DNA of 64,000 bases from Vicinamibacterales bacterium (GTDB lineage: Bacteria > Acidobacteriota > Vicinamibacteria > Vicinamibacterales > UBA8438): positions 47,896 through 111,895 of the forward strand of contig CBDATI010000022.1 in the NCBI GenBank assembly GCA_965199675.1, read 5' to 3'. This document shows positions 16,711-61,969 of this stretch, piece after piece. Both the position numbers and the translations under genes were made by a program. The notes under the pieces were generated by a model. That model had not been told where the DNA came from and searched no databases. It worked only from the letters and a program-made list of their open reading frames with translations. Numbering within the stretch: the stretch's first letter is position 1; each line of letters begins with the position of its first letter.

Positions 16711-16721
16711 GGTGGCGACGC

Positions 16722-42818: not shown

Positions 42819-43581
42819 CGAGCATCTGCAATACAATTCCTGTAGTTGTTACACTACCATTTCTCGGATGGTTGCGCTACTGCTCATCTGAAGTCTCCGC
42901 GCCATCAGGAAGCCGTGGCGGTCCCGCTGTTCGAGCAGGAACCGCTCGGGGCGGCCGGGGAAGAGACAGTCGGGCCGACCTGGTGCTCGACGGGATCGCC
43001 GCCGCCGGGTGCGCGCCCGGAGCAGGGCGCGAATCTCGGCTCCCGGTTCGTCGCGGCGGCAGAGCTGTTATCGTCTCGCCTTCCCGAAGCTGACCGACGT
43101 AGCGCGAGAGGTGGATCTTCGCCCCGTGCATGCAAACAAGAATCATGGCCATGATTCTTGTTGATTTCCGAGTCTGACAAACTCGTCCGCTTTACATCCG
43201 ATCCGCCCCTCGCGGCTCTCGCCGGCGGTTCGCGAAATCCGGTCTCCCCCCAATTATCCCGCCAAATTTCCCCCCATTTTTGGTGGAAAAACGGCGAGCG
43301 GGCGGAGCCCTCCGCCATCGGTCACGACACCGCGTTTTTGCCCGGATTCAGGGCCAAAATTCGCCCTCGACGCCCGTTCGCCCACCCGAAAAAATGGCGG
43401 ACTGATCCAATTCCCCCGTTGCCGATGGAAAAGCGGCTGTCGCGACGGCAGCACATCGTGAAGCTGGGTGCGGGAGATTCAAGTGAGAGGAGCCGTAGCC
43501 GAGGGCTATGCGGGAGGAAGGCGGAGAGGCGAGTGCTTCCGTCGTGGCGGGGCGGGAACGGACTTCAAGGGAGATTGTGAC

Positions 43582-46500: not shown

Positions 46501-46821
46501 ACGGTGAACCTGATGCGTGACCGGGCCATGAGCGGCGCCGGGGACGACGACTTCACCGCCGACCCGATTGTCATCCGTGCGGGCCAGATGAGCGGCACGA
46601 CGATGGTGATGGCGGTGGAAGACGGCATGATGGAGAACATGGACAACATGCCGGAAGAGCTGGTGCTCTACGGCATGGCGGAAGGCATGGCGGCTGAGGT
46701 GACGGGCGAAGTGAAGCTCTACCTCTGGGATGCCGCGGTGCCGGCCCTGCCGATCATCGCGCAGCTCCTGCTGGCGGCCTTCCTCGCCGTCGGCGGCTAT
46801 CGGCGGTACCACCGTCGGTAG
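43582..46821 (+). CDS. Large Met-rich surface protein with Ig-like, FN3 and Calx-beta-like domains and an IPTL-CTERM-like anchor
   Basis: Signal peptide; LPAGLMF..LTGTPT; FN3 (LDVSW..YQVQ..LTDGETYEFQVRAVN); C-terminus VPALP + TM + RRYHRR. Confidence 0.82.
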   Translation: MRMGAILTRGSCRALKWMAMVGVVFALGNGAEAQTLEVTYGSEMDHDYNVDLGPIPITVTYTRDSTNPLSPTPRYLTLNLVPHEKSRDLGMGGRSGMTEDPDGTFKLATRSMMPSADGDTFTATFNVEAARSTGRGKRRVVVTAAALEVRVGGSRIPIPDTGDVNGVSAILRLKLSPLDPVPDMIVSAGEEITPITLPEALGGLGMETQYSTTALPAGLMFEADDMKDTWRMLTGTPTMPIDQGGVSVTYSAADGTGMPQSETFRITVQYMPDMPDAPTVTPNTTSGDLDVSWDMPADNNDPIIYYQVQHRMMGETAWSVPPVNATMGTSYTFTDLTDGETYEFQVRAVNSLGMSDWSATGSGIDPADPPVAPTLRGQITRMEIKGNFEEKTIGGDTRIHVEEGELDLSVELEVSWTHKELTELHAQNTKYVFVDIYAGWSSAAGVTLPDWVSWLDYEQDVDFPDTRYGGGRYASGRTWARMRIDLPPAPKTSPNSELDREVNSGELAIRVLEDQSEAENDAFLVGVSGSEDVDVNVRRPDDVLVIIEDNEEQTVTVKRGRSSGPTTVYENAEEVEFIIEAVPHREDLPLDVRLNMVDLHGATVSSAMISVSDTSLVLNARGAGGANPDDNKENVTVHLPASDGNRVDDTYHLEASVSEYSLASGGYHLIPSTPHELKVLDIHKLPLLAVDPSMGSVAEGGEIELKLTLDRNPPETIAIDPETRRYTSEAVDVMLTMGAGTTAGMGDYQLPATVEFPKHNGKSPWTQSMMVKVMALEDEVLDDGEMLVLDAMLAGKETRNGAEKMSVPMVTELTISDQTMELVWAKTQAEVEAAVYDAKEKGMGGDMMFTHGEMIEIMGSALFNAAPNVTLSYSVMSSDEQVASTMVSGGMVSVMAEAMGMADITITAHASMPSGVKIADQTDPREASIMFPVEVGVEALTLTLTGPEDMNVVEGGGGAMLTVTANRAVTEAVTVNLMRDRAMSGAGDDDFTADPIVIRAGQMSGTTMVMAVEDGMMENMDNMPEELVLYGMAEGMAAEVTGEVKLYLWDAAVPALPIIAQLLLAAFLAVGGYRRYHRR

Positions 46822-46849
46822 AATTCGGCGGCGTTCGTAGTCTCCGTTG

Positions 46850-46896
46850 CCCCCTCTTCCTCGGGAATGCTCCCGGGGGAGAGGGGGTTTCTCTTT
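46850..46896 (+). terminator. Intrinsic terminator
   Basis: ccccctcttcctcggga/tcccgggggagaggggg stem followed by tttctcttt. Confidence 0.7.
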
Positions 46897-46899
46897 GCC

Positions 46900-47130
46900 C
46901 GTTTCGACGGCGTCATCATGCGCATCGACGGGCGTCATCATGCGCATCGGCGGCGTCAACACGCGCATCGACGGATCGCTTCAACGGCGTCAACGCCCGC
47001 ATCAGCGAACTCCGCGACGATCTTGCCCGCGTCGATGACCGGCTCCGGGCCGTCGAGATCGCCGTGGGGGAAAGTGGATCAGCGCCTGCTGACCATCGAC
47101 CGCGTCGTGCTGCCCGGAGCCGGGGCTGAC
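46900..47130 (+). pseudogene. Remnant of a heptad-repeat coiled-coil gene (21-nt repeats)
   Basis: gacggcgtca.ca.gcgcatc repeats encode DGV(I/N)xRI. It continues through frameshifts as ELRDDLARVDDRLRAVEI..GKVDQRLLTIDRVVLP. No 5' end. Confidence 0.5.
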
Positions 47131-47361
47131 GCACGCCCGCAAGATTCCCGCGAAGTGCCGAACTCGGGCCCGCGGCCACCCCGCCCTCAGCGCCCGCGCT
47201 GCTCCGTTCCGGAGCTCGCCTCGACCGACTCCCCTTCGCCCGGGTGCCAGTGACACTTGGCGCACGGGTGTCCGGTCGAACGGCTTTGTGAACCGGCCCA
47301 GGGGTGCGCAACTGAAGCACGCTTCGCCTCGTCTGTTGGACGAGGAAGCCGTGCAGGGGGT

Positions 47362-47961
47362 TCAAGGGAACTTGTACGGGTAGCGCGCCGCCAGTGCTTC
47401 CTGGAACCGGCGGAATGCAGACACGTTCTCGAGCGGACTGTAGTCTGCGATGTACTCGGCGACGCTGACGCGACGATCCACGATTGAACGCAGGAATTTT
47501 CTGCCGCGACGGCCCGCGGGCGCCCCAGCCGCGTCGTAGAGGAGTCGGTCCAGGCGATCCTTGGCATCCGGGATGTTCTCAATCTGGCCGATGCCGGGCG
47601 CCGGTACCTGCGCCGACGGTTCGCCGGCCGCCTTGGCGATTGCGGGTCCGTCGAAAAGGAGCCACGACTCTGACATCCGAACAGGTACGACCGGAACGAC
47701 ATCCTGTCGATCCACGGCGTCGAACTCCTGCAGGCGCTCGTCGAGCGTGACGTTCTCGGAATCGCGGTGGACGAAGATCAGCATCGCCCCGGTCCTGTAG
47801 TTCGCCAGGAACTCCGTCACGCTGTGTTTTCGCTTCCGGAACTCCGGTTCGAGGATCTCCACGCCGGGGTCCAAGCGGTGCACCGCCCATTGGATGATCG
47901 GAACGAGAAGCCGATCCGTTCCGCCATCCGCGACCACGGCGTACGCCAACTGTCGGTTCAC
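47362..47961 (-). CDS. DUF4276/TOPRIM-like protein
   Basis: VVADGGTD, FVHRDSE, PVVPVRMSESWLLFD, SAFRRF. GTGA overlap with the ATPase stop. Confidence 0.7.
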   Translation of the reverse strand: MNRQLAYAVVADGGTDRLLVPIIQWAVHRLDPGVEILEPEFRKRKHSVTEFLANYRTGAMLIFVHRDSENVTLDERLQEFDAVDRQDVVPVVPVRMSESWLLFDGPAIAKAAGEPSAQVPAPGIGQIENIPDAKDRLDRLLYDAAGAPAGRRGRKFLRSIVDRRVSVAEYIADYSPLENVSAFRRFQEALAARYPYKFP

Positions 47962-49331
47962 CTGGCGGATCCAAACTCCAGGTTCAGTTGCCCGAACTCG
48001 AGGCTGACGGGCGAGCCGCCGATGAAGTCGGCCACCGCCTGCCGATCCGCGGGCAGCACGCTCGACTCGCTTCCGTTCGGCAGGTTCGTTCGCCACGTGT
48101 CGGCGATCGGCCGGAACACGCTGATGGGCCCGTCGGTACTCGTGAGCGCCCGCTCGACGAAGATCAGATCGTCGCAGGAGAACTGTCGCGCCACTTCGGG
48201 CGAATGGGAGTTGAGCAGGACCTGCCGCAGCGGGTTGTCATCGTCCACTGCGTCGTCCACGTCTACGGCGTAGTCCCGCAACAGATCCGCCAAATGGGGC
48301 ACCCGAGAGGGATGGATTCCGTTCTCGGGTTCCTCGATGCACAGCACGGCGCGATCCTGAACATCCACCAGCATCAGGACCAGGGCGATGTACCGCAGCG
48401 TACCGTCCGAGAGGGAACGGCCGTACAGCCAGTTGTCCACGCCGCGGACGCGGGCGCGCAGAGCGAACTGGTCACGGACGTCGTCCGTGTAGACATCGAG
48501 CTCCGCGATGTCCGAGTTGAGCTGCCGAAGCCGGTAGAGGATCTCGGCGCTTGCATTCGGGTTTTTCCTGACGAGGGCGTGGAGCGTGGCCGGGATGTGA
48601 CCGCCCGAGGCGGAGACGTGGGCGGGCGCCGAGCGGGTGTCCGGCGTCCTCATCGCGCTGGGCTCGAGATGGAGGATGCGCCACGACGACATTTCCCGCT
48701 TCGCAGCCAGGACGGTCGGGTAGTCGGAGGTGTTCGTGCCCCCCACCACGGTCAGGGGAGACCGGCCGACCGGTGTGGGGCGGCCTCGGCTCCCGCCGTC
48801 GCCGTGGAGCTGGATCCTGTTCTCGCTGGTGGAGATGAGCGGTCCTCCCCGACGCCCTCCCGACGCGACCGCCTTCTTGAAGTCGTTGGAGCAACGGAAC
48901 CCGATGAAGCTCTTCGCGTTCTTGAGCTTGGCGTGGGTCAGGCTCTCGTACTGCACCAGCAGCCGGTCAGACTCGGGCGTATAGCGCAACCCCACGGTGT
49001 AGGTCAGCAGGGTCGTGCTCGGTATCGCCGATTCGCCGAAGTCGTCCAGGACCACCGGAGGCGCCACCATGTCCGCCGACAGCTCGATCCTGCGCCTGGG
49101 GTCCCGGCCGAACACGAGGTCGAGTGGCGAATGGCCGCCGTCGCTCGTGCGCCGCACGACGGTGGCCGCGGCCGAGATGTTCTGCTCGGCAAGTGCGCTC
49201 AGGAAGTGGATGGCGTCGAACAGGTTGCTCTTGCCGACGCCGTTGTGGCCGATGAAGCAGGTGAACGGCCCGAAGCGGACGTGCGCTTCGCGGATGCTCT
49301 TGAAGTTCTTGATCGAGAGGGCGACGAGCAT
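47958..49331 (-). CDS. Soluble ABC-type (AAA_21/RecF-like) ATPase
   Basis: IKNFKS, GHNGVGKSN, LSDGT, CIEEPENGIHP, NSHSP. Confidence 0.88.
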   Translation of the reverse strand: MLVALSIKNFKSIREAHVRFGPFTCFIGHNGVGKSNLFDAIHFLSALAEQNISAAATVVRRTSDGGHSPLDLVFGRDPRRRIELSADMVAPPVVLDDFGESAIPSTTLLTYTVGLRYTPESDRLLVQYESLTHAKLKNAKSFIGFRCSNDFKKAVASGGRRGGPLISTSENRIQLHGDGGSRGRPTPVGRSPLTVVGGTNTSDYPTVLAAKREMSSWRILHLEPSAMRTPDTRSAPAHVSASGGHIPATLHALVRKNPNASAEILYRLRQLNSDIAELDVYTDDVRDQFALRARVRGVDNWLYGRSLSDGTLRYIALVLMLVDVQDRAVLCIEEPENGIHPSRVPHLADLLRDYAVDVDDAVDDDNPLRQVLLNSHSPEVARQFSCDDLIFVERALTSTDGPISVFRPIADTWRTNLPNGSESSVLPADRQAVADFIGGSPVSLEFGQLNLEFGSAR

Positions 49332-49416
49332 CGGTGCACAGGGTCTCGGAACGGCCCGGCGATTGTCGCCTCGGCTGGGAGCATCGACCAGCGGGTTCTC
49401 GATGGTCCGCCGCGCC

Positions 49417-50505
49417 TCAATAGAACACGATGGCGAGGACGAAGACGACGATGGCGAGCATGACGAACCACTGCCAGATCTCCTGCTGGTCGTCCGAGGG
49501 GACGAGCTCGAAGGAGATGCTGCGGTGCGAGTCGACGACGTTGCGGAGGAAGGTGGCGGCGTCGACCTGGGGGCTGTCGACGATGACCGAGCGGCCGCCG
49601 GTGCGCTGCTCGACCATGTTGATGCCCTCGAAGCCGAGCTGGGTGCGCAGCCCCGCGAGGTCCTGCTCGAGGGTCTCGTCGTAGTCGATGCCGCGCACGT
49701 AGTCGATGAGCACAGAGTCGACGTTGGCCCCGGTGCGGCTGCCGATGCCGATGGTGTAGATGACGAGGCCGCGACGGCGGAACTCGGCGAGGGCGGTGTC
49801 GAGCCGGCTCATCTGCTCGGCGTCGATGAGGAAGTCGCCGTCGGTGAACAGCAGCAGCACGCGGTCGTTGCGCTCCTCGGGCAGCCAATCGTCGTCGCCC
49901 GACTCGAAGCGGTCCTGGTTGTCGAGCGACAGGTAGATCGACTCGAACGCGGTGGCGATGTCGCTGTCCCACGGGAAGGCGTCGCCGGTGAGGCTCACGG
50001 GCGGGGCGATGCGCCCCACCTCCTCGATGAACCGCTCGGCGTTCGACGCCATGTGGGCCCGGCGCAGGGTGGTGGTGCCCCAGACGTACACGGCGGTGCG
50101 GTCGCCGGGGGTGAGGATGTCCTGGGTGTAGAGGCCCAGCGCCTCGCGGACCGCGAGGTCGAGGCGCGAGGGTCCGAGGTCCTTGACCCACATCGACGCG
50201 GAGGCGTCGATGGCGACCACGACATCGACGTCGCCCCGCCGGAAGGTCTGGCCGCCGTAGACCCAGAACGGCCGGGCGGCGGCGACGGCGACCAGGGCGA
50301 GGGCGATGATGGCGAGGAACCAGAACTTGACGTGGCCGAAGAGCGGGTACTTCGAGCCCTCGGTGCGGGCCGGGCGCAACTGCAGCCGCAGCGCGAAGAC
50401 GAGGAGGCCGAAGACGAGCAGCAGGCCCGCGAGCGGGACGATCGCCAGGTACTCGGGGTTGGCGAACTCGACGCTCTCCCGGAGCAGGCGGCTGATGGTG
50501 TCCAT
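49417..50505 (-). CDS. Membrane vWA protein (MxaL/BatB-like)
   Basis: N-terminal TMs, AARP, MIDAS DASAS, TDGD, IYTIGIG, C-terminal TM. Confidence 0.82.
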   Translation of the reverse strand: MDTISRLLRESVEFANPEYLAIVPLAGLLLVFGLLVFALRLQLRPARTEGSKYPLFGHVKFWFLAIIALALVAVAAARPFWVYGGQTFRRGDVDVVVAIDASASMWVKDLGPSRLDLAVREALGLYTQDILTPGDRTAVYVWGTTTLRRAHMASNAERFIEEVGRIAPPVSLTGDAFPWDSDIATAFESIYLSLDNQDRFESGDDDWLPEERNDRVLLLFTDGDFLIDAEQMSRLDTALAEFRRRGLVIYTIGIGSRTGANVDSVLIDYVRGIDYDETLEQDLAGLRTQLGFEGINMVEQRTGGRSVIVDSPQVDAATFLRNVVDSHRSISFELVPSDDQQEIWQWFVMLAIVVFVLAIVFY

Positions 50506-50523
50506 CGGGTCGTGCGCAGGCGA

Positions 50524-51189
50524 CTACCCGCGGCGGCGGCGCACCGGGGTGCCCTCACCCTTCATCTGCTCGAGCTCGGGCGGCTCGATCTCGCGGGGCG
50601 CCTCGAGGGCGCGCCGCACCGCCTCGGCGTTGCTGGTCAGGTCGTAGTTCCACTTGTAGTCGAAGCGGTCGCCGGGGTCGCCGCGCAGGGCCCGCTCGTA
50701 GTCGGCGTTCACCGTCTCCATCACCTCGAGGATGATGGCCTCGCGCTGCGTCGCGGCGTCGGGGGCCTCGGGGTCGATGGCGCGGTAGCGCTGCCGCGCC
50801 AGCATGAACCTGGCGTTCGCGAGCAGGTGCGACGCCCGCGGATCGTCGATCTCGTCGGCGAGGTCGGCCACCACCGTCTGGTAGTCGCCGGTCAGGTAGT
50901 TGTAGGACGCCTGCTGGAGGAACGAGTCGCGGAACAGGTACGAGTCGGCGAACCACTGCATGCCCCACGCCCGGCTGCCCTGGTAGAACGCCGACACCTC
51001 GGCGAGCTGCGTCTCGGCCGTCTCGAAGTCGCCGCGCTCGACGCTGGCGCTCAGCCCTTCGAGGTTCGTGTAGAACGCGGTCAGGCTGCGCGCCGGTATC
51101 GAGACCCCGGCGAAGAAGAGCAGGGCGAGCACGAAGCCGACGAGATACCGGAACGAGTGCTCCTTGTCGAGCAGGTCTGTCAGTCGCAT
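50524..51189 (-). CDS. Membrane-anchored helical protein (MxaK/BatC-like)
   Basis: One N-terminal TM, LLANARF, YERALR..DYKWNYDL; position between two vWA genes. Confidence 0.65.
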   Translation of the reverse strand: MRLTDLLDKEHSFRYLVGFVLALLFFAGVSIPARSLTAFYTNLEGLSASVERGDFETAETQLAEVSAFYQGSRAWGMQWFADSYLFRDSFLQQASYNYLTGDYQTVVADLADEIDDPRASHLLANARFMLARQRYRAIDPEAPDAATQREAIILEVMETVNADYERALRGDPGDRFDYKWNYDLTSNAEAVRRALEAPREIEPPELEQMKGEGTPVRRRRG

Positions 51190-51274
51190 GTCACTTCTCT
51201 CTCGAGCGCCGCGGGTCTCGCGAGCGGCCGCCTCCGGGGGCGCCCGCCCGTCTCCGTTCCGGAGGGGGAACCCG

Positions 51275-52405
51275 CTACGGCGTGGTCCCCCACAGCAGCT
51301 CCGACACGAACCCGACGGGGATGCCGACGAGCAGCAGCCCCATCGCCACGAGCAGGAACCGCGAGTAGATGGGCACCTTCAGGGCCCGGTGCTTCAGCTC
51401 CATGCGCACCGCCTCGCGCTCGTCGATAGCCTGGTAGGCGCGCAGCAGGCTGTCCTCGTCGGTCACGTCGAAGTAGTCGCCGCCGTATTCCTGAATCTGT
51501 CCGACGAGCTGGGGGACGGTGGGGTGGAGAAAGCTCGCGGTGCGCGCGTCGCTGGTGTTGATGTAGATGATGTACGGCACGATGTTCCGCTTGTTCAGCT
51601 CCGCGAACTCGGCGTCGGGGAACTCGTCGACGGCCGCGTCGGTGATGATGAGCACCGCCCGGTTCTGGTTCTGGCCGCGGCCCACCGCCGCCTCGTCCTG
51701 GTCGAAGTACTTCACGATGTCCTGCAGGGGGCGGATGATGTTGGTGTCGCCCTCGGCGGGAACGATGCGGACCTTGTCGCGCGGCACCACCATCGCCTTG
51801 TCGAGGCGCTGGGTCATGACGTAGGGCGCGTCCCACACCTGGTAGTAGTACAGCTCGTCGTCCATGACGAAGTCGTCCACCTTGTAGGGATAGGTGGAGA
51901 ACAGCCACAGCGACACGCGGTCGTTCTTGTCGCGCCGCATCTCGAGGAACTCGAGATGGGCGTCGCGGGCCACCTCGGCCTTCGACTTGTTGGTGTCGGG
52001 GAACTCCCACGCCATCGACCCCGACGTGTCGACCAGATCGACCCGGACCCGCGACTCGACGTAGCCGCTGACCTCCTCGGTGGCGGTGAGGAACGGGTCG
52101 GCGACCGAGAACACGAGCAGCGCGAGAGCGCCGGCGGCGAGCGCCTTGGGGGCGGTGTGGAGGACGCGGATCCACAGCCGCTTGCGGTGCCCCGGCTCGA
52201 TGACGTGGCCGGAGTGCTCGCGCACGTGGCGCTTGCTCACGGCGGCCAGCCGCACCAGGGTCACGGCGAGCACGACCCCGAGCACGAGCGCGATTCCCAT
52301 CGCGATGCCGACGTCGCCGTACCGGATCTGCGCGAAGTCGGTCTCGATCAGCTCGCGCACGCCGCCGTCGACGAACATGACGAACTCGGACCAGGGCATC
52401 AGCAT
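51275..52405 (-). CDS. Membrane vWA protein (MxaC/BatA-like)
   Basis: Two N-terminal TMs, ADP, MIDAS DTSGS, DRVSL, GDT, ITD, AIDERE, C-terminal TM. Confidence 0.82.
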   Translation of the reverse strand: MLMPWSEFVMFVDGGVRELIETDFAQIRYGDVGIAMGIALVLGVVLAVTLVRLAAVSKRHVREHSGHVIEPGHRKRLWIRVLHTAPKALAAGALALLVFSVADPFLTATEEVSGYVESRVRVDLVDTSGSMAWEFPDTNKSKAEVARDAHLEFLEMRRDKNDRVSLWLFSTYPYKVDDFVMDDELYYYQVWDAPYVMTQRLDKAMVVPRDKVRIVPAEGDTNIIRPLQDIVKYFDQDEAAVGRGQNQNRAVLIITDAAVDEFPDAEFAELNKRNIVPYIIYINTSDARTASFLHPTVPQLVGQIQEYGGDYFDVTDEDSLLRAYQAIDEREAVRMELKHRALKVPIYSRFLLVAMGLLLVGIPVGFVSELLWGTTP

Positions 52406-52414
52406 GATCTCGTC

Positions 52415-53536
52415 CTAACCCTTCACCGGCCGCGGCGCCGCCATTCCCACCAGCGCCTTCAGGTTGTTCACCATCCGCACGTACGGGCGCAGTCGGTACA
52501 GCGCCTCCCCGAGCAGGCGCGCCTCGCTGGCGGGGTGCTCCACCGGCGCCGGCGCGCCGGTCTCCAGCCCCCGCTGATAGGCCACGAGCCGGCCCGCGAT
52601 CACCCCGAGGGCGCCCTTCCGGTAGCTGTCTTTCAGCCCGTCGACGTGCCGCTGGATGTCGAGGGCGGTGTCGCCGGAATGGAGGGCCGGCAGGTCTGCC
52701 TGCAGGTAGTCGCGCAGGGCCAGCACGAGCGCCCGCTGGCGGTCGGCGAGCTGGTCGGCGGCGACGTCCCGGGGCAGTCTCCGCAGCGCCGCCAGCTCGC
52801 GGCTCACGGCCCGGCGCGCCTCCCAGATCGAGGGGAGGACCGGGATCTGCGCCTCGATGCGGGCCAGCTCGTCCTCTTCCTGCTGCTTCTCGATCGAGAC
52901 CGCCTTCGGCTTGCGGGCGAACCGCACCAGCATCACGAACCAGACGAGCAGCGGCAGGGGGGCGATGCCCCACGCCAGGGTGCGGAAGAACGTCGCGAGG
53001 CCCGAGAACGTGCCGAGCTCGATGGTGTCGCGGATGTCGAGCAGCGGCTCGTCGGTGATCGACGTCACGTAGCGCACCAGCCCCTGCCCCCCGTCGACCT
53101 GCTGGACCTCGGCGTCCTCGATGTCCTCGCCGAGATCCCGCACGAGGTAGTAGAAGCTGAAGCTCGGCAGGGCGTAGGTCATCTTGGTGGGGTCGACGAG
53201 GCGGAACTCGTACACGAAGTCCCACACGTGCGTGTCGTCGATGCGGTCCTTCTCGACCACCAGGGCCGTCGCCTCGAACGGGTGGACCGGCAGCGCCTCG
53301 GGGGTCATGCGGTCTTCGAGGACGATGATCTCCCGGCCGCTCGGGATCAGGTCGGGGAAGCGCAGCCGGTAGCGCTGCGTGATGCGGTCGCCGGTCTTGA
53401 CGACGGTCGGCTCGAGCTCCAGCGTCTCGACCCGCACGAGGCCCTCGCCGGGCGCGCCGGGATCGGGCGGCTGAGCGGCGGACCCCGGCGGCGCGATCAA
53501 GAAGAGGCCGGCGGCGACGGCGAATAGGCGTGTCAT
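52415..53536 (-). CDS. Exported single-TM protein (MxaA/BatD-like)
   Basis: Signal peptide MTRLFAVAAG, TGDRIT, beta-rich domain, TM, helical tail. Confidence 0.62.
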   Translation of the reverse strand: MTRLFAVAAGLFLIAPPGSAAQPPDPGAPGEGLVRVETLELEPTVVKTGDRITQRYRLRFPDLIPSGREIIVLEDRMTPEALPVHPFEATALVVEKDRIDDTHVWDFVYEFRLVDPTKMTYALPSFSFYYLVRDLGEDIEDAEVQQVDGGQGLVRYVTSITDEPLLDIRDTIELGTFSGLATFFRTLAWGIAPLPLLVWFVMLVRFARKPKAVSIEKQQEEDELARIEAQIPVLPSIWEARRAVSRELAALRRLPRDVAADQLADRQRALVLALRDYLQADLPALHSGDTALDIQRHVDGLKDSYRKGALGVIAGRLVAYQRGLETGAPAPVEHPASEARLLGEALYRLRPYVRMVNNLKALVGMAAPRPVKG

Positions 53537-53586
53537 GGTCACCCGATCTTCCCTGCCAGTCTGCGAAGGTCCCGCCCGCGAGACAC

Positions 53587-54504
53587 CTAGCGCGCGAAGC
53601 GCGACATCAGGAACCTGGGCAGCTCCTCGAGGTGGTTCTGCTCGGTCAGCACCACCGAGTCGATGCCCGCCTGGTGTTTCAGCTTGTACTGCAGCGCCGC
53701 CCGCGTCTCCTCGATGCGCCGGCGAATCGCGCCCGCCTTCCGCGCCGATATCACGGTCTGCTTGCGCGTCTCCATGTCCGAGATCCGGATGTAGCCGAGC
53801 CGGCTCCTGACCCGGAACTCGTCGGGGTCGTCGAGGACGAGCACGATCATATCGTGCTTCGCGGCCAGCGTGCTCAGTTGCTTGAAATCGACGGCGTCGG
53901 GGTCGTTGACGAGGTCGACGCCGTCGGTCAGCAGGACAATCGAGTGGCGCATCTTGAGCCGCGCCAGCATGAAGTCGAGGGCGACCTTCAGGTGGGCCCG
54001 CCGCCGGGCCGGGAACTCCCGCTCGAGTTTCAGCTTCTCGAAGATCTTGTACGCCATGTAGAAGACCTGCGAGGTCCCGAGCTTCGGGCGCAGGTAGAGC
54101 TCGATGCGGTCCGAGTAGCCGAGCAGCCCCACCGGGTCGCGCAGGTTGGCGCGGGTCAGCCCGATGTTGCCGAGCAGGTCGAGCATCAGCAGCGCCTTGT
54201 TGGTCTCCTGCGACACCTGGAACAGGGTCGAGTACGACAGGTCGCAGACGATCAGGGTGCGGAGCTCCTTGGGCTCCATCCGCTCGATGCGGTACAGCTT
54301 CTCGGGGTAGGTGCGGAGGCTGAGGCTCCACGCCACGTCCTTCAGGGGCTGGCCCGGCCGCCACTGATCGACGCCGACGATGTCGTAGCCGGTCCCCTTG
54401 AACCCGCTCTTGTGCTCGCCGAAGTGGATGCTGTTGGAGGGCTTGCGGGCCCGGATGCCGTGCTTGATGTCGCGGAACCGGGCGTAGACCTCCTCTACTT
54501 CCAC
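53587..54504 (-). CDS. DUF58 protein (MxaS-like)
   Basis: GEHKSGFKGTG, WRPGQ..VAW, DLSYS, DPVGL. Confidence 0.82.
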   Translation of the reverse strand: MEVEEVYARFRDIKHGIRARKPSNSIHFGEHKSGFKGTGYDIVGVDQWRPGQPLKDVAWSLSLRTYPEKLYRIERMEPKELRTLIVCDLSYSTLFQVSQETNKALLMLDLLGNIGLTRANLRDPVGLLGYSDRIELYLRPKLGTSQVFYMAYKIFEKLKLEREFPARRRAHLKVALDFMLARLKMRHSIVLLTDGVDLVNDPDAVDFKQLSTLAAKHDMIVLVLDDPDEFRVRSRLGYIRISDMETRKQTVISARKAGAIRRRIEETRAALQYKLKHQAGIDSVVLTEQNHLEELPRFLMSRFAR

Positions 54505-55610
54505 GGCGGAACCTCCATGTCCCGCAGGATCTGCTGGAGCAGGTCGTCCTTGTCGACGGAGAACTCCATGCCCTCGCGCAGCACGATGCGGTGGGCGAGC
54601 ACGGGGCCGGCGACCGCCTTGATGTGGTCCGGGGTGATCGCCATGTCGCCGTTGAAGAAGGCGAACGTCCGGGCCACCGCCTCGAGGTGGAAGTGCACGC
54701 GGGGGGAGATGCCCACGCGGATGTACTCCTTGACGGTCCGGGCCGCCCGTCCCATCACCCGGTGCGGCCGGGTGTTCCGGATCAACCGCACCTTGTACTG
54801 CTGCCCGTAGTCCGACATCGAGACGTTGTCGAAGATGTAGCGGGCTATGTCGAGCACCTCGTGGAGGTCGGTCAGCTTCTCGACCTTGCGTCCGACCACG
54901 TTGCGGGCGCTGATGTTCAGCTCGTCCTCCTCGTCCTCGGGGTCGAGCATGTTGATGGACAGGGTCGTGCGGTCGAGCTGGGCCACCGGGTTGGCGAACG
55001 TGCCCTCCTCCTCGCCGAAGATGTTCTCGGTGCAGATGACCATGAAGAAGCGGGGGCCGTCGATGTCGTTGAAGTCGCCCGACAGCGGGAACAGGGGCAG
55101 CATCTTGCCCTCGGCGAGGTTGCCGTAGTCGGAGCTGAGGGTCGCCGAGCTCTCCTCCATGCCCTCGAGCACCGCCGCCTTGGTCTTGCCCGACAGCCGG
55201 TTGTCCTCGTCGATGAGGACGATGTGGGCCATCAGCTTGCCGGGCTTGAACACCAGCTTCCGCGAGCCGTCGGTCTCCTCGACGATCGTCTCATAGCCGA
55301 GGATGTCTTCGGGCATGTACGTCGGCAGGCCCTGGATGCGCTCGAACTTGGCGTCGATGGCCATCGCGCAGGCGCTGACGAGGTCGGTCTTGCCGGTGCC
55401 CGTCGGCCCCCGGAACATCACGTGGGGCTGGCGCAGCAGCTTGCTCTGGCTCAGCTTGTCGGTGTACGGCAGCAACGTGAAGAACGCCCAGGACAGGATG
55501 CGGGCGGCATCGTCGAGGCCGTAGAGCCACTTGGTCGACTCCTTCTGGAACCGCTGGACCACTTCGTTGGCCCGGTCGAAGTCGATTTCGCGCGTCGTTT
55601 GCACGGCCAT
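54495..55610 (-). CDS. MoxR family AAA+ ATPase (MxaR-like)
   Basis: GPTGTGKT, RIQG..MPEDILG, DEDNR, AAVLEGMEE, AQLDR, GISPR, VLAHRI. Confidence 0.9.
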   Translation of the reverse strand: MAVQTTREIDFDRANEVVQRFQKESTKWLYGLDDAARILSWAFFTLLPYTDKLSQSKLLRQPHVMFRGPTGTGKTDLVSACAMAIDAKFERIQGLPTYMPEDILGYETIVEETDGSRKLVFKPGKLMAHIVLIDEDNRLSGKTKAAVLEGMEESSATLSSDYGNLAEGKMLPLFPLSGDFNDIDGPRFFMVICTENIFGEEEGTFANPVAQLDRTTLSINMLDPEDEEDELNISARNVVGRKVEKLTDLHEVLDIARYIFDNVSMSDYGQQYKVRLIRNTRPHRVMGRAARTVKEYIRVGISPRVHFHLEAVARTFAFFNGDMAITPDHIKAVAGPVLAHRIVLREGMEFSVDKDDLLQQILRDMEVPPWK

Positions 55611-55801
55611 GAGTCTGTTCTGCTCTCCCTTTGCATGGTGCGGCGGTGGCGTCCATCGGGGCCGTCGAGTCTCGCGCGCCCGGTCCGCCCGCCGTCGGCA
55701 CCGGCCAGAGGCGCCCGCCTCCGCGAAGCGAGCCCCTAAGTGTGTCCGCACCGCCGCCCGGCGTCAAGGTTCCGGGCGTCTGCGGAGCGCCGTGCAGACG
55801 C

Positions 55802-58150
55802 CTACCGGGGCCCCCCGCCGATGGTCAGTCCCACGTAGTACTCGCGGTCCGGGGAAGGCTCGAAGTAGCGGCTGCCGAACGCGTTGGTGATGGTGGACGA
55901 GTTGTAGATCTCGTTGAACAGGTTGTCGATGCCGAGGAACGGACGGACGTCGACGCCGCCCAGCGTCGCATCGAACCCGAAGCGCAGGTCGACCACCGTG
56001 TACGCCCAGTTGAACACGGTGTTGGCGTTGTCGAGGGTGTAGTCGTCGACCCACCGGACCGTCATGCCCGAGCGCAGGCCGAACGGCGCGGTGTGGTTGA
56101 AGCCGGCGAAGAGGCGGTGCGGCGGCGACCCCGGCTCGACGTTGCCGGCGAAGTCGTTGCCGCCCGGCGCGAACTGCACGAACCTGAAGTTCTGGTACGT
56201 GTACGCGAACCGGGTGCTGAACGCCGGGTCCGGGATCCACTCGAGCAGCAGCTCGACGCCGTCGCGCGACGACTCGCCGGCGTTGCGGAAGAAGACCTCT
56301 TCGGTCGGGCTCTGGAACGAGACGAGGGCGTTGTCGACGGTGGAGACGTACACCGCCGCCTCGTAGCGCAGGCGCGCCGCCTCGGCCAGTCCCCGCACCC
56401 CGACCTCGAAGCTGCGCAGGTCCTGCGGCCCGAGCTCCTGGTTGAACCCGCCCTCGCCGGTCGGGGTGTTCGACAGCTCGACGGTGGTGGGGGTCTCGTA
56501 GGCGGTGGCGAGGCTCGTGAACAGGTTGACGTTGGGGGCGGCGGCGACGGTCATGCCGACCGAGGGGCTGAACGCGTCCATCCTGCGGTCGCCGGACTGG
56601 TCGCCGTCGTCGAGCTTGCGGTCGCCCGCGCGGAAGTCGTAGTAGTCCCAGCGCACGCCGGCCGTGAACCGCACGCGGTCGGTCGGCGAGACGCCGATCT
56701 GGGCGAAGGGGCCGGCCGACCGCACGTCCTCGGTCTGGTCGATCTGCAGGGCGCCGCTCGTCGCGCGCTCGCCGCTCACCTCGGGGGCCACCTGCGAGAA
56801 CTCGCGCCGGTCGTCGTTCTGCGACGCCACGTCGACGCCGGCCGCCCAGTCGATGCCCGCCGCGCCCGCCGCTGCGCCGCCGACGTACTCCGACCGCAGG
56901 CCGCGCCCGTTCCGCCTCAATTCGACGTTGCGGAACGCCCCCACCGCGTCCAGATCCCGCCACATGCCCCAGCCCGTCACCCGGAACATCTGGGTCTCGG
57001 TGAAGCGGTGCTCCAGCGTCACGCCGCCCTGGCCCTGGTTCGCGCCCTCGCCCCAGTTGCGGGCGCGGGCGACGCCGCGGGCCATCCGCCGCCGCATGGG
57101 GTCGCGGGCGTCCTCCTCGTTGAGGAAGCTCGCGCTCTCGGCGAACGGGCTGTCGTAGAGGTTGAACACGCCGCGGATCTCGGTGGCGTCGCCCAGCTCG
57201 CGCCGCACCACGAAGTTGGCCTGGGTGATCTCGGCGTGGCTGTTCTCGCGGAACCCGTCGGTCTCGAAGCGGCTCACGCTCGTCATGAACTGGGTGGGGC
57301 CGTCGCCCCCGGCGTCGATGCGGACCTGCTGCCGGTTGTAGCCGTAGCTGCCGAACTGGACGTCGGGCCGGATGACGAACGGGCGGGAGGTGTCGAACGT
57401 CGTGGTGAGGTTGATGACCCCGCCGGCGGAGTTCCCGTACAGCACCGAGCTCGGCCCCCGGATGACGTCGATGCGGCCGACCGAGCCGAGGTCGACGTTG
57501 CCCGGCTCGGTGGTGCCGTCGGCGGTGGTGATGGGAATGCCGTCCTGGATGAGGGCGAGCCCGCGCAGGCCGAAGCGCGGTTCGGGGGCGCGGATGCTCA
57601 GGCCGATGCCCCCCGACAGGCCGTAGTTGCGCCGGTTCTGCACGAAGAGCCCGGGAATGCCGCGCAGCGCCTCGTCGAGCGACGAGCGCCGCTGGGCGAA
57701 CTCGATCTGCTCGCGCCCGACCACCGCCACCGACTGCGGGACGGTGGCGAGGTCCTGATCGGTCCGGGTCACGGTGACCGTCTCGGTCAGCGGCGCGAGC
57801 TCGAGCCGCAGGTTCGCGGTGGCGACGGCCCCCGCCTCGACCGCCACGAACGCGATCTCGCTGCTGAAGCCCGGCAGCACCCCGCGCACCTGATACCGGC
57901 CGGCGGGGAGGTTCGGGATCTCGTACTCGCCGAACCCGTCGCTGACGCCGGTGTGGCCGCCGCCGCCGGCCTCGGCCACGGCGGTCACCGCCACGCCCGG
58001 CAGCACCCCGCCGCTCTCGTCCACGATCACGCCGGCGATGGCGCCCGAGCCCTGGCCTGCCCGGCTCGTCGACGCCCCGACGGTCAGGAGCATCAGTACG
58101 GCGGCGAGTCGTTCGAGCCGCTGCCAGCCCGGCTGTCTCCGGTTGTTCAT
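55802..58150 (-). CDS. TonB-dependent receptor with N-terminal carboxypeptidase-regulatory-like domain
   Basis: DESGGVLPGV, ETVTVT, plug IDVIRGPSSVLYGNSAGGVIN, DNLFN. Confidence 0.9.
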   Translation of the reverse strand: MNNRRQPGWQRLERLAAVLMLLTVGASTSRAGQGSGAIAGVIVDESGGVLPGVAVTAVAEAGGGGHTGVSDGFGEYEIPNLPAGRYQVRGVLPGFSSEIAFVAVEAGAVATANLRLELAPLTETVTVTRTDQDLATVPQSVAVVGREQIEFAQRRSSLDEALRGIPGLFVQNRRNYGLSGGIGLSIRAPEPRFGLRGLALIQDGIPITTADGTTEPGNVDLGSVGRIDVIRGPSSVLYGNSAGGVINLTTTFDTSRPFVIRPDVQFGSYGYNRQQVRIDAGGDGPTQFMTSVSRFETDGFRENSHAEITQANFVVRRELGDATEIRGVFNLYDSPFAESASFLNEEDARDPMRRRMARGVARARNWGEGANQGQGGVTLEHRFTETQMFRVTGWGMWRDLDAVGAFRNVELRRNGRGLRSEYVGGAAAGAAGIDWAAGVDVASQNDDRREFSQVAPEVSGERATSGALQIDQTEDVRSAGPFAQIGVSPTDRVRFTAGVRWDYYDFRAGDRKLDDGDQSGDRRMDAFSPSVGMTVAAAPNVNLFTSLATAYETPTTVELSNTPTGEGGFNQELGPQDLRSFEVGVRGLAEAARLRYEAAVYVSTVDNALVSFQSPTEEVFFRNAGESSRDGVELLLEWIPDPAFSTRFAYTYQNFRFVQFAPGGNDFAGNVEPGSPPHRLFAGFNHTAPFGLRSGMTVRWVDDYTLDNANTVFNWAYTVVDLRFGFDATLGGVDVRPFLGIDNLFNEIYNSSTITNAFGSRYFEPSPDREYYVGLTIGGGPR

Positions 58151-58674
58151 GGCTATCGTGTCCCCGTTCGGTGCGCTACGGCGACGACGATTCGCGGGCG
58201 GCAGGTCGATCTGCCAAGTGCGGCGTCGCGGTCAGCGATTCTCCCTGACGGCCATGATAGCAACCCGCCGCGCGGACGAACAATGGACTGCGGCCGACCG
58301 GCTCGGGCCTGAACGGGTCACCCGGCTCGGCTGGCTCGCCGCGCCGAGCGATTGCGGCATTATTTGTTTGACCTGATGGAGTTGTCGTCCGTACATCTGC
58401 CCGGGAAGGGGTCGGCGCCGACGACCTGCAGGCCCCGCGGGCCTGGGGTCAGGAGGGGGACCGCCGGACGAAATCGCGCCGAGCGCCCCGACGCCACCCT
58501 CGAACGGGAACCGCCCGGTGCTTCAGCGACGATTACGTCGCGCGACCGCTTCTGGCAGAAATTCGCCCGGACGTTGTCGGAGAACAGCCTGCCCGGAGTC
58601 TCTGTCGAGGCTCCGGGCAGGTCGGATCGGTGGGGATCGGAACCGCGGGCGGCGAACTCCGGGCAGGTCCCGGT

Positions 58675-60855: not shown

Positions 60856-60970
60856 GGCTGCCTTCCGTTTCCTGGGACCCGGGGCCGAATCGCGCGTTCC
60901 GCCCCGGGCGCCCGTCGTCACCTCGCGACCCCGCAAGCCGGCGGGAATCCGCCGGTTCCTCCTGCTTGTC

Positions 60971-61355
60971 CTACTTGCGGGTCGCCTTCCAGTCGCCGGT
61001 GCCGTACCAACTGAAGCTGCCCGGGGCGCCCTGGATGGTGTCGCCCACGGAGCTCGCCCTCGAAGTCGATGGGCTGGTCGCCGTCGAGGTCGGGCACGAC
61101 GATGACGAACGTCAGCTTCGCGCCCTCGACGGCGCCGTCCACGTCGAGGATCTCGTTGTCGCCGAGGTCGATCTCGCCGCCGAGCCTGTCGCCGTCCTGC
61201 TCGAACCGCGCCTGCCACGTCGTCACGCCGGTCTGCGTCGTCAGCCGGATCTCCCAGTCGCCGGTCACGTCGGCCTGGGCGTGCGCGAGCGTCAGGCCCG
61301 CCGCGCCCGCGACGAGCGTCGCGAGGGCCGCCATCACTCTCAATCTCGACATCAT
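60971..61355 (-). pseudogene. Small secreted beta protein with an apparent 1-nt frameshift
   Basis: MMSRLRV..ADVTGDW..IDFEGEL. Removing one base near 61047 gives GDTIQG..GDWKATRK*. Confidence 0.6.
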
Positions 61356-61969
61356 CGTTCCTGCCCCGTTTCCTCCAGGACCTTCGTGTACCACATGACC
61401 CCGAAGTTGACGAACGGCTCGCCGTCGACCGAGATTTCCTGGTTGACCCGGTACGCGTACGGCGAAACGAGATAGCTCCGACCCCGGATCATCAGCTCGG
61501 CGTCGCCGTGCCGGATGGGGGCCGGGGTCTCCCAGAATTGGCTGTAGTAGCCCCCGAGGTCCCCACCGAGGGGGCCCGGCTGCAGCAGCGCGAACCCGGC
61601 GTCGTACACCACGTACTTGGTGAGGTGGGCGCCGAAGGGGCCGGTTTCCAGGAACAGGATGCCCTGGCCGCGCAGCGACCGCTCCTCGCCTTCGAGCTCG
61701 ACCGTCACCTCGAGATACCGGCCGTCCGCGATGTGGCGGACGCGTTCGACCCCGGTGTAGCTCCCGCCCGGCAACAGCGGCGTGTCGAGGGGAGACCACT
61801 CGATCTCCCAGTCGCCGAGGAAGTACCGCAGGTCGAACGGCGGCATCATCTCGTCGCCGGTCGTCGGTCCGCCCTGCGTCGCCCCCGGCTGTTGCCGCTG
61901 GGCTTGCAGGGGAGGCGCGGCTCCCGCGGCGACGCCGATCCCCAACAGAACCGCCAGCAACTGCCTCAT
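61352..61969 (-). CDS. Hypothetical secreted beta-barrel protein
   Basis: Signal peptide, LRYFLGDWEIEW; ATGA coupling to the next gene. Confidence 0.65.
   Translation of the reverse strand: MRQLLAVLLGIGVAAGAAPPLQAQRQQPGATQGGPTTGDEMMPPFDLRYFLGDWEIEWSPLDTPLLPGGSYTGVERVRHIADGRYLEVTVELEGEERSLRGQGILFLETGPFGAHLTKYVVYDAGFALLQPGPLGGDLGGYYSQFWETPAPIRHGDAELMIRGRSYLVSPYAYRVNQEISVDGEPFVNFGVMWYTKVLEETGQER

Follow-up and report, generated by a model that had tools for sequence, protein, structure and literature searches.

A conserved six-gene MoxR/vWA cassette beside a PqqU-type importer in Vicinamibacterales, a candidate maturation system for PQQ enzymes

The window, the whole 64,000-nt stretch of Vicinamibacterales DNA analysed here, carries six co-directional genes (g1–g6) on the minus strand at 49417-55610, delimited by GC3-guided ORF calling. 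In order, they encode a MoxR AAA+ ATPase, a DUF58 protein, an exported protein with one transmembrane (TM) segment, a vWA protein, a protein with a TM segment and a TPR-like domain, and a second vWA protein; the intergenic gaps from g1 to g6, calculated from the coordinates, are -10, 44, 9, 85 and 18 nt. An earlier note on this DNA had described a six-gene operon with these domains, order and motifs, all of which were recovered, with outer ends at exactly 49417 and 55610. The arrangement is not due to chance, because tblastn found the same gene order in 80 related loci (g1 in 80/80, g2 in 77, g3 in 75, g4 in 74, g5 in 73 and g6 in 71). The cassette is conserved in one order of Acidobacteria, the Vicinamibacterales, and in some ultra-small bacteria, and MoxR identity is 79-99% over 76 Vicinamibacterales-type loci (L001-L076 and L080) and 66% in L077. 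Between 49000 and 58400, one sigma-70-like promoter match was found (58359-58388, minus strand, 5' of the importer gene described below), against a mean of 0.4 in shuffled sequences and therefore weak evidence, and no terminator-like sites were found in the same interval. This pattern is compatible with a single transcript spanning the importer gene and g1–g6, and is no demonstration of one.

The first gene, g1 (54495-55610, minus strand), encodes a cytoplasmic MoxR-type AAA+ ATPase of 371 aa (Pfam AAA_3, 5.2e-25; AAA_lid_2, 1.1e-13) with no predicted TM segments and a median identity of 90% over the 80 loci. Its Walker A motif is GPTGTGKT and its Walker B motif VLIDEDNR; Walker A and the D-E pair of Walker B are kept in 77/77 aligned sequences. 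The earlier note had singled out DEDNR as an atypical Walker B. The motif is present, but it is no meaningful anomaly, because the third residue varies across the subfamily (D, S, A, G, I or L) while D134, E135 and R138 are invariant. In alignment with ordinary MoxR proteins g1 has three insertions, its sole PDB relative is 2r44 (2.3e-29), and a quick tree places g1-type MoxR proteins in a clade apart from ordinary MoxR (SH-aLRT 100). On these sequence comparisons, g1 is assigned to a distinct MoxR subfamily of ~371 aa.

Four of the six cassette proteins are predicted to be membrane-anchored. The cytoplasmic, vWA-like DUF58 protein g2 (53587-54504, minus strand, 305 aa; DUF58, 8.9e-20; VWA_2, weak at 0.0046) has no predicted TM segment, and the beginning of its gene shares 10 nt with the end of g1; a DxSxS motif is present here too (DLSYS), with S90 and S92 invariant among 22 sequences, and the median identity of g2 is 75%. 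The exported protein g3 (52415-53542, minus strand, 375 aa; candidate starts GTG 53542 or ATG 53536) has a signal-peptide-like N-terminus and a TM segment at residues 188-206, followed by R/K-rich sequence. Its AF2 model (pLDDT 78) has strands within residues 37-158 and helices within 179-368, predicting a beta-sandwich in the periplasm, one TM segment and a helical domain in the cytoplasm. At E<=1, g3 matched no family in Pfam or NCBIfam, its median identity is 61%, and a profile of its family searched against 1.84 billion proteins matched only 174 representative clusters. The vWA proteins g4 (51275-52405, minus strand, 376 aa; VWA_2, 1.5e-07; TM 32-50, 88-106 and 350-368) and g6 (49417-50505, minus strand, 362 aa; VWA_2, 3.4e-06; TM 20-38, 59-77 and 343-361) share a topology of two N-terminal TM segments and one C-terminal TM segment. 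Both have the intact DxSxS motifs reported in the earlier note (DTSGS in g4 and DASAS in g6), kept in 74/74 and 72/72 sequences, respectively; MIDAS sites of vWA domains bind metal ions. The vWA domain of g4 is probably periplasmic, because the loop between TM1 and TM2 is R/K/H-rich, and by such positive-inside reasoning the vWA domains of both proteins are predicted to lie outside the cytoplasmic membrane. Between them, g5 (50524-51189, minus strand, 221 aa) encodes a one-TM protein (TM 15-33) with a TPR-like helical domain and a basic C-terminal tail, GEGTPVRRRRG, whose residues are invariant or nearly so among 21 sequences. It has no family above a curated cut-off (a lone weak match to GAP1-C, E 0.0026, reaches 17.6 bits against a cut-off of 27.9); its AF2 model (pLDDT 77) is helical throughout, and the top-scoring PDB structures are those of TPR proteins (TM-score on target up to 0.69, but E>=0.03).

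The gene just upstream of g1 (55802-58150, also on the minus strand), at a distance of 191 nt, encodes a PqqU/YncD-type TonB-dependent outer-membrane PQQ importer. The protein resembles PqqU (YncD) in its full-length match to PDB entries 6v81 and 9c4o (9.4e-65; next receptor 3.5e-17) and in its kept signature residues, and differs in falling below the NCBIfam PqqU equivalog cut-off (288 versus 1200 bits; next model 136 bits), in Glu274 and in having no Arg at position 536. A profile of 17 importer orthologues scored 1.2e-102, and the PQQ-binding signature published in PMC12124388 is invariant in them: R304 and R365 are kept, Y99 is replaced by F, and K274 is replaced by an invariant Glu, a substitution for which modelling excerpted from the same paper proposes that Ca2+ or La3+ can be bound together with PQQ. 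The importer occurs in 60/80 loci, directly adjoining g1 on the same strand in 44/80, and 20/80 have none within the fetched flank. It is probably independent of the cassette, because PqqU is reported in 22 phyla, a term search of PMC12124388 turned up no neighbouring genes of PqqU, and the words AAA and von Willebrand are absent from that paper. That source lists PqqU for the class Vicinamibacteria (n=17) and reports its Acidobacteria to be devoid of genes for PQQ synthesis, whereas the present window combines the importer with pqqA/B/C/E.

The earlier claim that the window encodes PQQ synthesis held: pqqE (24565-25953, minus strand, 492 bits), pqqB (26048-26962, plus strand, 406 bits) and pqqC (29740-30468, plus strand, 352 bits) score above their NCBIfam equivalog cut-offs, and a pqqA-like ORF of 24 aa with an E-x3-Y motif lies at 29486-29560 on the minus strand; PqqD was searched for in the window and not found. 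This block (24565-30468) sits about 19-25 kb from g6, and in relatives without the lower-GC island (40-49 kb) it is closer to the cassette. Between pqqB and pqqC is a gene for a divergent PQQ propeller dehydrogenase (27141-28964, plus strand; PF01011, 343 bits; TIGR03075, 261 bits against a cut-off of 480). The statement that methanol dehydrogenase genes are absent is therefore correct only in a strict sense: with this propeller homologue in the midst of the pqq genes, the window does contain a candidate client.

Across the related loci, pqqB/C/E lie <=10 kb from the cassette in 12/80, in at least three arrangements, and a PQQ alcohol dehydrogenase gene follows the cassette or lies just upstream in 5/80, including one locus of another phylum. 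With the importer directly upstream, these counts do not refute the earlier interpretation, which a lack of co-occurrence with PQQ or propeller enzymes would have contradicted. The dehydrogenase is downstream of g6 in four Vicinamibacterales loci. In L039, g6 is followed by a dihaem cytochrome c and then by the dehydrogenase (TIGR03075, 535 bits against the cut-off of 480), with a stop-start overlap; the same enzyme is encoded downstream of g6 in L034 and L035, and in L069 a single array comprises pqqB/C/E, importer, cassette and a PQQ dehydrogenase gene (482 bits). The cross-phylum case is a single contig of Candidatus Yanofskybacteria (L079), which encodes all six proteins in the same order at 26-50% identity. 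Its propeller gene, 1.4 kb upstream of the cassette, encodes a protein 39-41% identical to the L034/L035/L039 enzyme, and an amicyanin-like cupredoxin is encoded further upstream. No TonB-dependent receptor adjoins this cassette; Yanofskybacteria-type bacteria are not known to have an outer membrane. All six propellers examined contain the D-x-D motif, which excerpts of PMC11996626 take as diagnostic of lanthanide binding; among the six, the L079 protein has R in place of the Glu metal ligand, and only the L034/L035/L039 enzymes have a Cys-Cys pair. The dehydrogenase adjacency could be chance, given its 5/80 rate and the up to 70 such genes in some marine Acidobacteria (PMC11996626, in part). 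The importer and pqq adjacency is mostly synteny within one order, not a set of independent events, and 11/80 loci have no PQQ-related neighbour, 6 of these with an upstream flank of at least 3 kb. We note that local inversions keep genes near each other without selection.

Weighing what is observed, namely which genes the cassette contains, how they are ordered, their motifs, the predicted topology, the strong conservation and the genomic surroundings, we consider the chances about even that g1–g6 form one inner-membrane MoxR/vWA machine that resembles MxaRSACKL but serves PQQ-dependent enzymes different from MxaFI. In this layout, g1, g2 and the C-terminal helices of g3 would lie on the cytoplasmic side, and the MIDAS-bearing vWA domains of g4 and g6, the beta-sandwich of g3 and, less certainly, the TPR-like domain of g5 would face the periplasm. 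ATP hydrolysis by g1 would act through the membrane subunits on the periplasmic vWA/MIDAS domains, which may bind Ca2+ or a lanthanide and either place this metal ion in the active site of a PQQ propeller dehydrogenase or open the enzyme for metal entry, and the cassette would be co-expressed with the importer that brings in PQQ. We infer metal insertion from analogy and genomic context, and complex formation, direction of energy transfer, client enzymes and metal identity are likewise putative. The earlier reading, a divergent metal-insertion machine for another propeller enzyme, is partly supported. Counting against metal loading, maturation of XoxF-type (lanthanide) enzymes proceeds in the absence of the six auxiliary proteins, according to excerpts of PMC12276312.

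A tentative alternative, which we regard as possible but doubtful, is that the cassette is a lineage-specific Bat-type MoxR/DUF58/vWA envelope system acting in stress or oxygen tolerance or envelope integrity, and that the PQQ genes are inherited neighbours in a PQQ-rich clade. The building blocks are those of Bat operons; g4 and g6 have BatA_Lepto matches far below the NCBIfam threshold (E 0.016 and 0.0031); the nearest named Atlas clusters of g3 are BatD (11% of members) and DUF4381 (24%), with 1/20 distant g3 homologues giving a sub-threshold BatD match (22.4 versus 24.1 bits); and the low dehydrogenase count and the loci without PQQ-related neighbours point the same way. Against this, no Pfam BatA, BatD or TPR match was found in the window proteins, not even at E 0.1-1, the importer is a very constant neighbour, and a related propeller adjoins the cassette in a second phylum. 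Because the MoxR protein belongs to a separate subfamily with three insertions and g3 and g5 have no family, the cassette is, on sequence comparison, not an ordinary Bat operon, an outcome that leaves the earlier interpretation standing on this point. An improbable reading is that the cassette is not a maturase and serves as a periplasmic station that receives PQQ or a PQQ-metal complex from PqqU and stores, strips or passes on the metal. The importer immediately upstream, the window interval free of terminator-like sites, the invariant Glu274 with its modelled metal and the metal-binding MIDAS sites would suit such a role, but the Yanofskybacteria cassette has no adjoining receptor and the importer is missing from 20/80 flanks. 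We know of no precedent for such a station. A conflict or defence module is very improbable: some systems of this kind do contain MoxR-vWA pairs, a paper on NTP-dependent conflict systems (PMC7159879) mentions MoxR 78 times, and genes just downstream match candidate defence families (47958-49331, directly after g6, HEC-01A, 254 bits; 40138-41226, PDC-S01, 203 bits), but these lie in a lower-GC stretch (0.61-0.67 versus about 0.70) and adjoin the cassette only in close relatives (10/80 loci), whereas the cassette is core-like in its MoxR identity and g1–g6 match no PADLOC model, a result that also counts in favour of the proposed PQQ-maturase reading.

Among known systems, MxaRSACKL of methylotrophs is the closest in layout, and the earlier claim of a mirrored order agrees with the description excerpted from PMC12276312, in which incorporating Ca2+ into MxaFI in E. 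coli requires every one of MxaR/S/A/C/K/L. Both comprise six genes for a MoxR ATPase, a DUF58/vWA, a non-vWA, a vWA, a non-vWA and a vWA protein, with the MxaA and MxaK counterparts assigned by position and kind only, and each is associated with a cytochrome c as well as a periplasmic PQQ propeller enzyme, here in L039. The cassette differs in its MoxR insertions, in having no adjoining mxaF, mxaI, mxaJ or mxaG in the window, in neighbouring ethanol-type or divergent D-x-D propellers rather than MxaF, in its hosts, which are Acidobacteria and a lineage of a candidate phylum instead of Proteobacteria, and in its coupling to a PqqU importer. To our knowledge, such coupling is unreported for mxa. 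Bat operons (MoxR, DUF58 and BatA-BatE) share the parts list, including two TM-flanked vWA proteins, a TPR-type protein and an exported TM protein, but the context of the cassette is PQQ, and its gene order is that of Mxa; in Bat operons the two vWA genes are adjacent, with the TPR and BatD genes after them. NorQ/NorD and CbbQ/CbbO share the principle that a MoxR hexamer with a MIDAS vWA partner inserts metal into, or remodels, an enzyme (PMC9976466 and PMC13036017, in part); these are two-protein, soluble systems of the cytoplasmic side, whereas the cassette is largely membrane-anchored, with its vWA domains predicted outside the membrane.

The cassette comprises six minus-strand genes (49417-55610; g1 to g6 in reading order), called from third-position G+C content and ORF listing in a window of ~70% G+C, with intergenic gaps of -10, 44, 9, 85 and 18 nt from the ORF coordinates. 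The first gene, g1 (54495-55610), encodes a 371-aa MoxR-type AAA+ ATPase that matches both Pfam MoxR models above cut-off (AAA_3, 5.2e-25, 88.3 versus 27 bits; AAA_lid_2, 1.1e-13, 51.2 versus 22.7 bits). Its Walker A motif is GPTGTGKT and its Walker B region IDEDNR, with the D-E pair intact; because of an insertion, the AAA_3 match covers model positions 1-100 of 131 only. DUF58 (PF01882) is found in g2 (53587-54504; 8.9e-20, 71.3 bits, cut-off 23.4), and VWA_2 (cut-off 27 bits) in g4 (51275-52405; 1.5e-07, 32.4 bits) and g6 (49417-50505; 3.4e-06, 28.1 bits). No Pfam or NCBIfam match at E<=1 was obtained for g3 (52415-53542), and g5 (50524-51189) has no family above cut-off in these collections, its single weak match lying below the curated cut-off. 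ORF calls and Pfam bear out the six co-directional genes and domains named in the earlier note, including intact DxSxS MIDAS motifs in both vWA proteins (DTSGS in g4, DASAS in g6). These motifs are conserved in all aligned orthologues of g4 (74/74) and g6 (72/72), as is the Walker motif in those of g1 (77/77). Rfam gave no match in 49000-58600 at E<=0.1.

By hydropathy scan, g1 and g2 have no transmembrane (TM) segments. A single segment is predicted for g3 (188-206, preceded by a signal-peptide-like N terminus) and likewise for g5 (15-33); g4 and g6 share a layout of two N-terminal segments and one C-terminal segment. Arg/Lys-rich stretches occupy the TM1-TM2 loops of g4 and g6 and follow the g3 TM segment. 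Under the positive-inside rule, the predicted topology therefore places the vWA domains of g4 and g6 and the N-terminal domain of g3 in the periplasm, and the C-terminal domain of g3 in the cytoplasm.

The scan of one genome per species, which detects only sequences fitting two peptide patterns, matched 105 stretches, of which 92 were relatives; 80 loci were kept and 12 left out. By title, 77 belong to Vicinamibacterales, Vicinamibacteria, Vicinamibacteraceae or Acidobacteria, two to Candidatus Yanofskybacteria (L078 and L079) and one to an 'uncultured bacterium'. With window proteins as tblastn queries, g1 to g6 were found in 80, 77, 75, 74, 73 and 71 loci at median identities of 90, 75, 61, 76, 70 and 68%, respectively; gene order is constant across the 80 loci and absences mostly reflect short contigs. 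The Candidatus Yanofskybacteria contig L079 carries all six genes at 26-50% identity, with sizes and domains as in the window. In some loci, L032 among them, a long open frame precedes g1; it was considered as an N-terminal extension and rejected as the antisense of an opposite-strand gene, by eye encoding a 4-hydroxyphenylacetate monooxygenase-type protein. In one genome (record OZ253576.1), the entire array of upstream genes, receptor and g1-g6 occurs twice (L028 and L029), the copies being near-equal in identity to the window and separated by ~110 kb when counted over the ends of the record. This doubling reflects segmental duplication or, alternatively, an effect of assembly. Locus L039 has 52% G+C versus 70-72% in the other loci measured, yet MoxR identity is kept at 88-89% (noted for L034, L035 and L039).

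The ATPase belongs to a distinct MoxR subfamily. A search with g1 gave three tiers: at the top, proteins of 77-96% identity (58, all full-length); in the middle, a diverse group at 40-53% that includes one protein named Candidatus Yanofskybacteria; and at the bottom, ordinary MoxR at ~31-35%. Homologues from outside Vicinamibacterales number roughly 50, mostly from metagenome contigs. Three insertions distinguish the subfamily from ordinary MoxR in an alignment of 16 sequences: the first, of ~15 residues, precedes the P-loop, another of ~25 follows the second region of homology, and the third precedes the lid. The MoxR phylogeny proposed in the earlier note, run as a quick tree, sets g1 and its relatives apart from ordinary MoxR (SH-aLRT 100) and unites Vicinamibacterales sequences in one tight clade (support 100). 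Rooted on ordinary MoxR, this clade falls inside far more diverse other lineages, with support of only 82-84 at the relevant forks; judged from sequence, the cassette was likely transferred between Vicinamibacterales and those lineages. The Walker B motif, previously described as atypical, does read VLIDEDNR but is no anomaly: D134, E135 and R138 are invariant in the 16-sequence alignment, and the residue after D-E varies within the subfamily (D, S, A, G, I or L). As the catalytic pair is intact, we give this variation no weight.

The two orphan proteins bear on a possible, if rather doubtful, alternative: a Bat-like role unrelated to PQQ. Among 1.84 billion proteins, a g3 profile matched no more than 174 representative clusters at E<=1e-3, with 152 remaining at 1e-10 and 98 at 1e-30; in a second protein collection, the best 120 of 369 matches had no Pfam domain and were 'hypothetical' wherever named. 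BatD was annotated on 11% and DUF4381 on 24% of members of the Atlas clusters for g3, and BatD was found in 1 of 20 distant g3 homologues, at 22.4 bits, just under the cut-off of 24.1. These matches are weak leads from g3 to BatD/DUF4381, and to that extent would favour the Bat-like role. Against it, Pfam detected no BatA N-terminal domain (PF07584), BatD (PF13584) or TPR in g3-g6 at E<=0.1 to 1, and NCBIfam BatA_Lepto scored only 14-17 bits on window proteins versus a cut-off of 380, so that the likeness to Bat operons suggested earlier did not hold at the level of families. The AF2 model of g3 (pLDDT 78) consists of a beta-sandwich (37-158), followed by the TM helix and, at 217-368, a bundle of helices, and its comparison with PDB folds was uninformative (TM-score <=0.22 on the query, ~0.4 on small TRAP subunits). 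That of g5 is all-helical (pLDDT 77); its best PDB folds were TPR proteins, none significant (E>=0.03). The C-terminal end of g5 is an invariant basic tail, and its nearest Atlas cluster is a hypothetical family of 110 members, commonest in Candidatus Yanofskyibacteriota. Complex prediction for g2 and the g3 C-terminal domain (207-375), run without controls, scored 0.00, which speaks neither for nor against binding.

A TonB-dependent receptor gene (55802-58150) lies on the same strand as g1, 191 nt upstream. Its best NCBIfam model is PqqU (NF041535) at 288 bits, below the equivalog cut-off of 1200, and the next model scores 136. Among PDB structures it matches YncD/PqqU over its full length (9.4e-65; next receptor, 3.5e-17), and a profile of 17 orthologues matches 6v81 at 1.2e-102. 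The defining PqqU signature, according to PMC12124388, is Y99 (or F/W), R304 and R365; the receptor has F193, R398 and R448 at these positions, all invariant in the 17 orthologues. Residues were placed by profile alignment to 6v81, as single-sequence alignment misplaces R304 beside a gap. The position of K274 is an invariant Glu in the same orthologues, a substitution modelled in that source to let Ca2+ or La3+ bind together with PQQ. This residue would suit a cassette acting as cargo-handling partner of the importer, a reading that we consider improbable. The stretch 49000-58400 has a single promoter-like match, ahead of the receptor gene, and no terminator-like sites, weakly hinting that the receptor and g1-g6 may share one transcript. 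Further upstream (58675-62629) are three conserved genes encoding proteins of 847, 205 and 185 aa, which recur upstream in 34, 26 and 19 of the 80 loci, respectively; the first (58675-61218) has only a sub-threshold CarboxypepD_reg match in Pfam and no PDB relative by sequence, and the other two have no family.

The window also encodes PQQ synthesis, as claimed previously: pqqB, pqqC and pqqE exceed their NCBIfam equivalog cut-offs, and a pqqA-like 24-aa ORF with an E-x3-Y motif (29486-29560) separates the propeller gene from pqqC and, being on the minus strand, runs counter to pqqB and pqqC. PqqD was looked for, also within the first 105 residues of PqqE, and no such domain was found. PqqU in the class Vicinamibacteria is already on record in PMC12124388, which describes its Acidobacteria as lacking pqq synthesis genes, whereas the window has both importer and synthesis genes. 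Between pqqB and pqqC is a propeller gene (27141-28964, plus strand), the only PQQ propeller among the 40 window ORFs called and scanned. It scores 261 bits versus a cut-off of 480 for TIGR03075 (PQQ-dependent dehydrogenase, methanol/ethanol family), with 1kb0 as its best PDB match (7.5e-46), and by these scores is classed as a distant family member. The earlier statement that methanol dehydrogenase genes are missing thus stands insofar as the propeller is below the methanol/ethanol cut-off, but a PQQ propeller does exist 20 kb away. A tandem repeat with a 94-bp unit (28913-29166; 2.7 copies, 83% matches) begins in the last codons of this gene and continues downstream, so that the 3' end is partly duplicated.

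Elsewhere in the window, a plus-strand run (11358-19355) encodes a multihaem cytochrome c7-like protein, a 1059-aa molybdopterin/4Fe-4S protein, an NrfD-like protein, cytochrome c and a 418-aa protein without family, and resembles a cluster of alternative complex III type. A stretch of lower G+C (40138-49331; 0.61-0.67 versus ~0.70) separates the pqq block from the cassette; it is missing from most relatives, parts of it adjoin the cassette in close relatives only, and it is likely an inserted island. It encodes two ATPases with matches to candidate defence families, one of DUF4143 type (PDC-S01, 203 bits) and one of AAA_21/AAA_15 type (HEC-01A, 254 bits; also MADS3, at a below-cut-off 106 bits), together with a 1117-aa protein for which fibronectin-III is the sole family match. 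Candidate defence genes beside the cassette might suggest a defence role, which is scarcely credible given that PADLOC returned no match for g1-g6.

The question of co-occurrence with PQQ genes, raised in the earlier note, has a positive answer across the related loci (neighbours counted as matches with >=40% coverage): at least one of receptor, pqq gene or PQQ dehydrogenase is present in 69/80. A PqqU-like receptor occurs in 60 loci, on the same strand upstream in 58 and within 600 nt in 44; pqqB, pqqC or pqqE in 12, in at least three arrangements; and a PQQ dehydrogenase near the cassette in 5. Eleven loci have no PQQ-related neighbour, and in five of these the upstream flank is <3 kb. In L039, g6 is followed by a dihaem cytochrome c and a PQQ dehydrogenase, with overlapping stop and start; this dehydrogenase exceeds the TIGR03075 cut-off (535 versus 480 bits), and L034 and L035 carry the same type downstream of g6. 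The best solved relative of the L039 enzyme is 6zcv/6zcw (1.5e-102), which PMC11996626 identifies as lanthanide-dependent PedH. L069 combines pqqB/C/E, receptor and cassette in a single array with a PQQ dehydrogenase that scores 482 bits (cut-off 480). In L079, a propeller 39-41% identical to the L034/L035/L039 enzyme, and below the TIGR03075 cut-off (402 versus 480 bits), lies 1.4 kb upstream of g1, with a trypsin-like gene between them and an amicyanin-like cupredoxin further upstream. Trypsin-like peptidase genes directly precede the MoxR gene in both L078 (1646-2443) and L079 (9072-9899) and are 40% identical. All six propellers aligned have an extra Asp two residues past the catalytic Asp (DYD, DVD or DWD), and this D-x-D is a mark of lanthanide-type PQQ dehydrogenases according to PMC11996626; by motif, all six would fit the lanthanide type. 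Within this set, a Cys-Cys pair is confined to the L034, L035 and L039 enzymes, and in the L079 protein the Glu ligand is missing.

We consider it an even call that the cassette is an Mxa-like maturase, that is, a cofactor-insertion machine that would serve clients other than MxaFI. The Mxa architecture and the PQQ link by importer, synthesis genes and enzymes support this reading. It is weakened in that the importer and pqq neighbours mostly reflect synteny within a single order, that genes can stay close through local inversions without selection, and that the cross-phylum case is one contig. Dehydrogenase adjacency is rare and could be chance in genomes with dozens of such genes (PMC11996626), and lanthanide-type enzymes are said to need no helpers, XoxF-type enzymes doing without the six Mxa proteins according to PMC12276312.

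A broader and unlikely version of the maturase reading is that the cassette is a general loader for lanthanide-type (D-x-D) PQQ enzymes, working in series with a Glu274 PqqU variant that would import PQQ together with a metal ion. The module, accompanied by a client propeller, would have passed between bacteria of a candidate phylum and the ancestor of Vicinamibacterales, there becoming core and supporting very large PQQ dehydrogenase sets. We know of no dedicated machinery for cofactor loading of lanthanide-type PQQ enzymes, and metal acquisition by PQQ enzymes beyond MxaFI is unsettled, above all for lanthanide-dependent ones. As an Mxa-like, strongly conserved unit beside a PQQ importer, synthesis genes and D-x-D dehydrogenases, the cassette is a concrete candidate for metal loading, and a machine of this kind could explain failed expression of such enzymes in foreign hosts. 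Candidatus Yanofskybacteria-type bacteria are usually credited with minimal redox metabolism, and the combination of cassette, quinoprotein-like propeller and cupredoxin in one of their contigs is unexpected on that account.

Within the main texts of the partial literature covered, we found no paper describing the cassette or its PqqU link, and none among those listed that contains both PqqU and MoxR; others listed deal, by title, with different systems. The genome tables of PMC12124388 might nevertheless include these loci. MoxR and von Willebrand are absent from the text of PMC10875860 and PMC11996626, as are AAA and von Willebrand from PMC12124388; a ped-cluster review (PMC12997753) has MoxR in its reference list only. 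New here are a MoxR/DUF58/vWA cassette of cofactor-insertion type in new hosts, its two orphan subunits, its PqqU partner and, likely, different clients. A cluster with mxa genes was also sought by tblastn of the window propeller against plasmids (584 records; three loci taken from 60 listed): the unannotated L081 and L083 had no MoxR homologue, and the annotated L082 had no mxa genes.

For the Mxa system, PMC12276312 reports from a reconstitution in E. coli that MxaFI requires every one of the six proteins to incorporate Ca2+. ORFs and Pfam, set beside that account, uphold the earlier proposal that the gene order mirrors mxaRSACKL, for order and domain classes: MoxR, DUF58/vWA, non-vWA, vWA, non-vWA and vWA correspond to MxaR-S-A-C-K-L, a match of architecture only. 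The cassette differs in that the mxaF/J/G/I clustering is not seen among the 40 ORFs scanned in the window, and in that g6 is followed, in relatives, by genes for a cytochrome c and a PQQ dehydrogenase of ethanol type.
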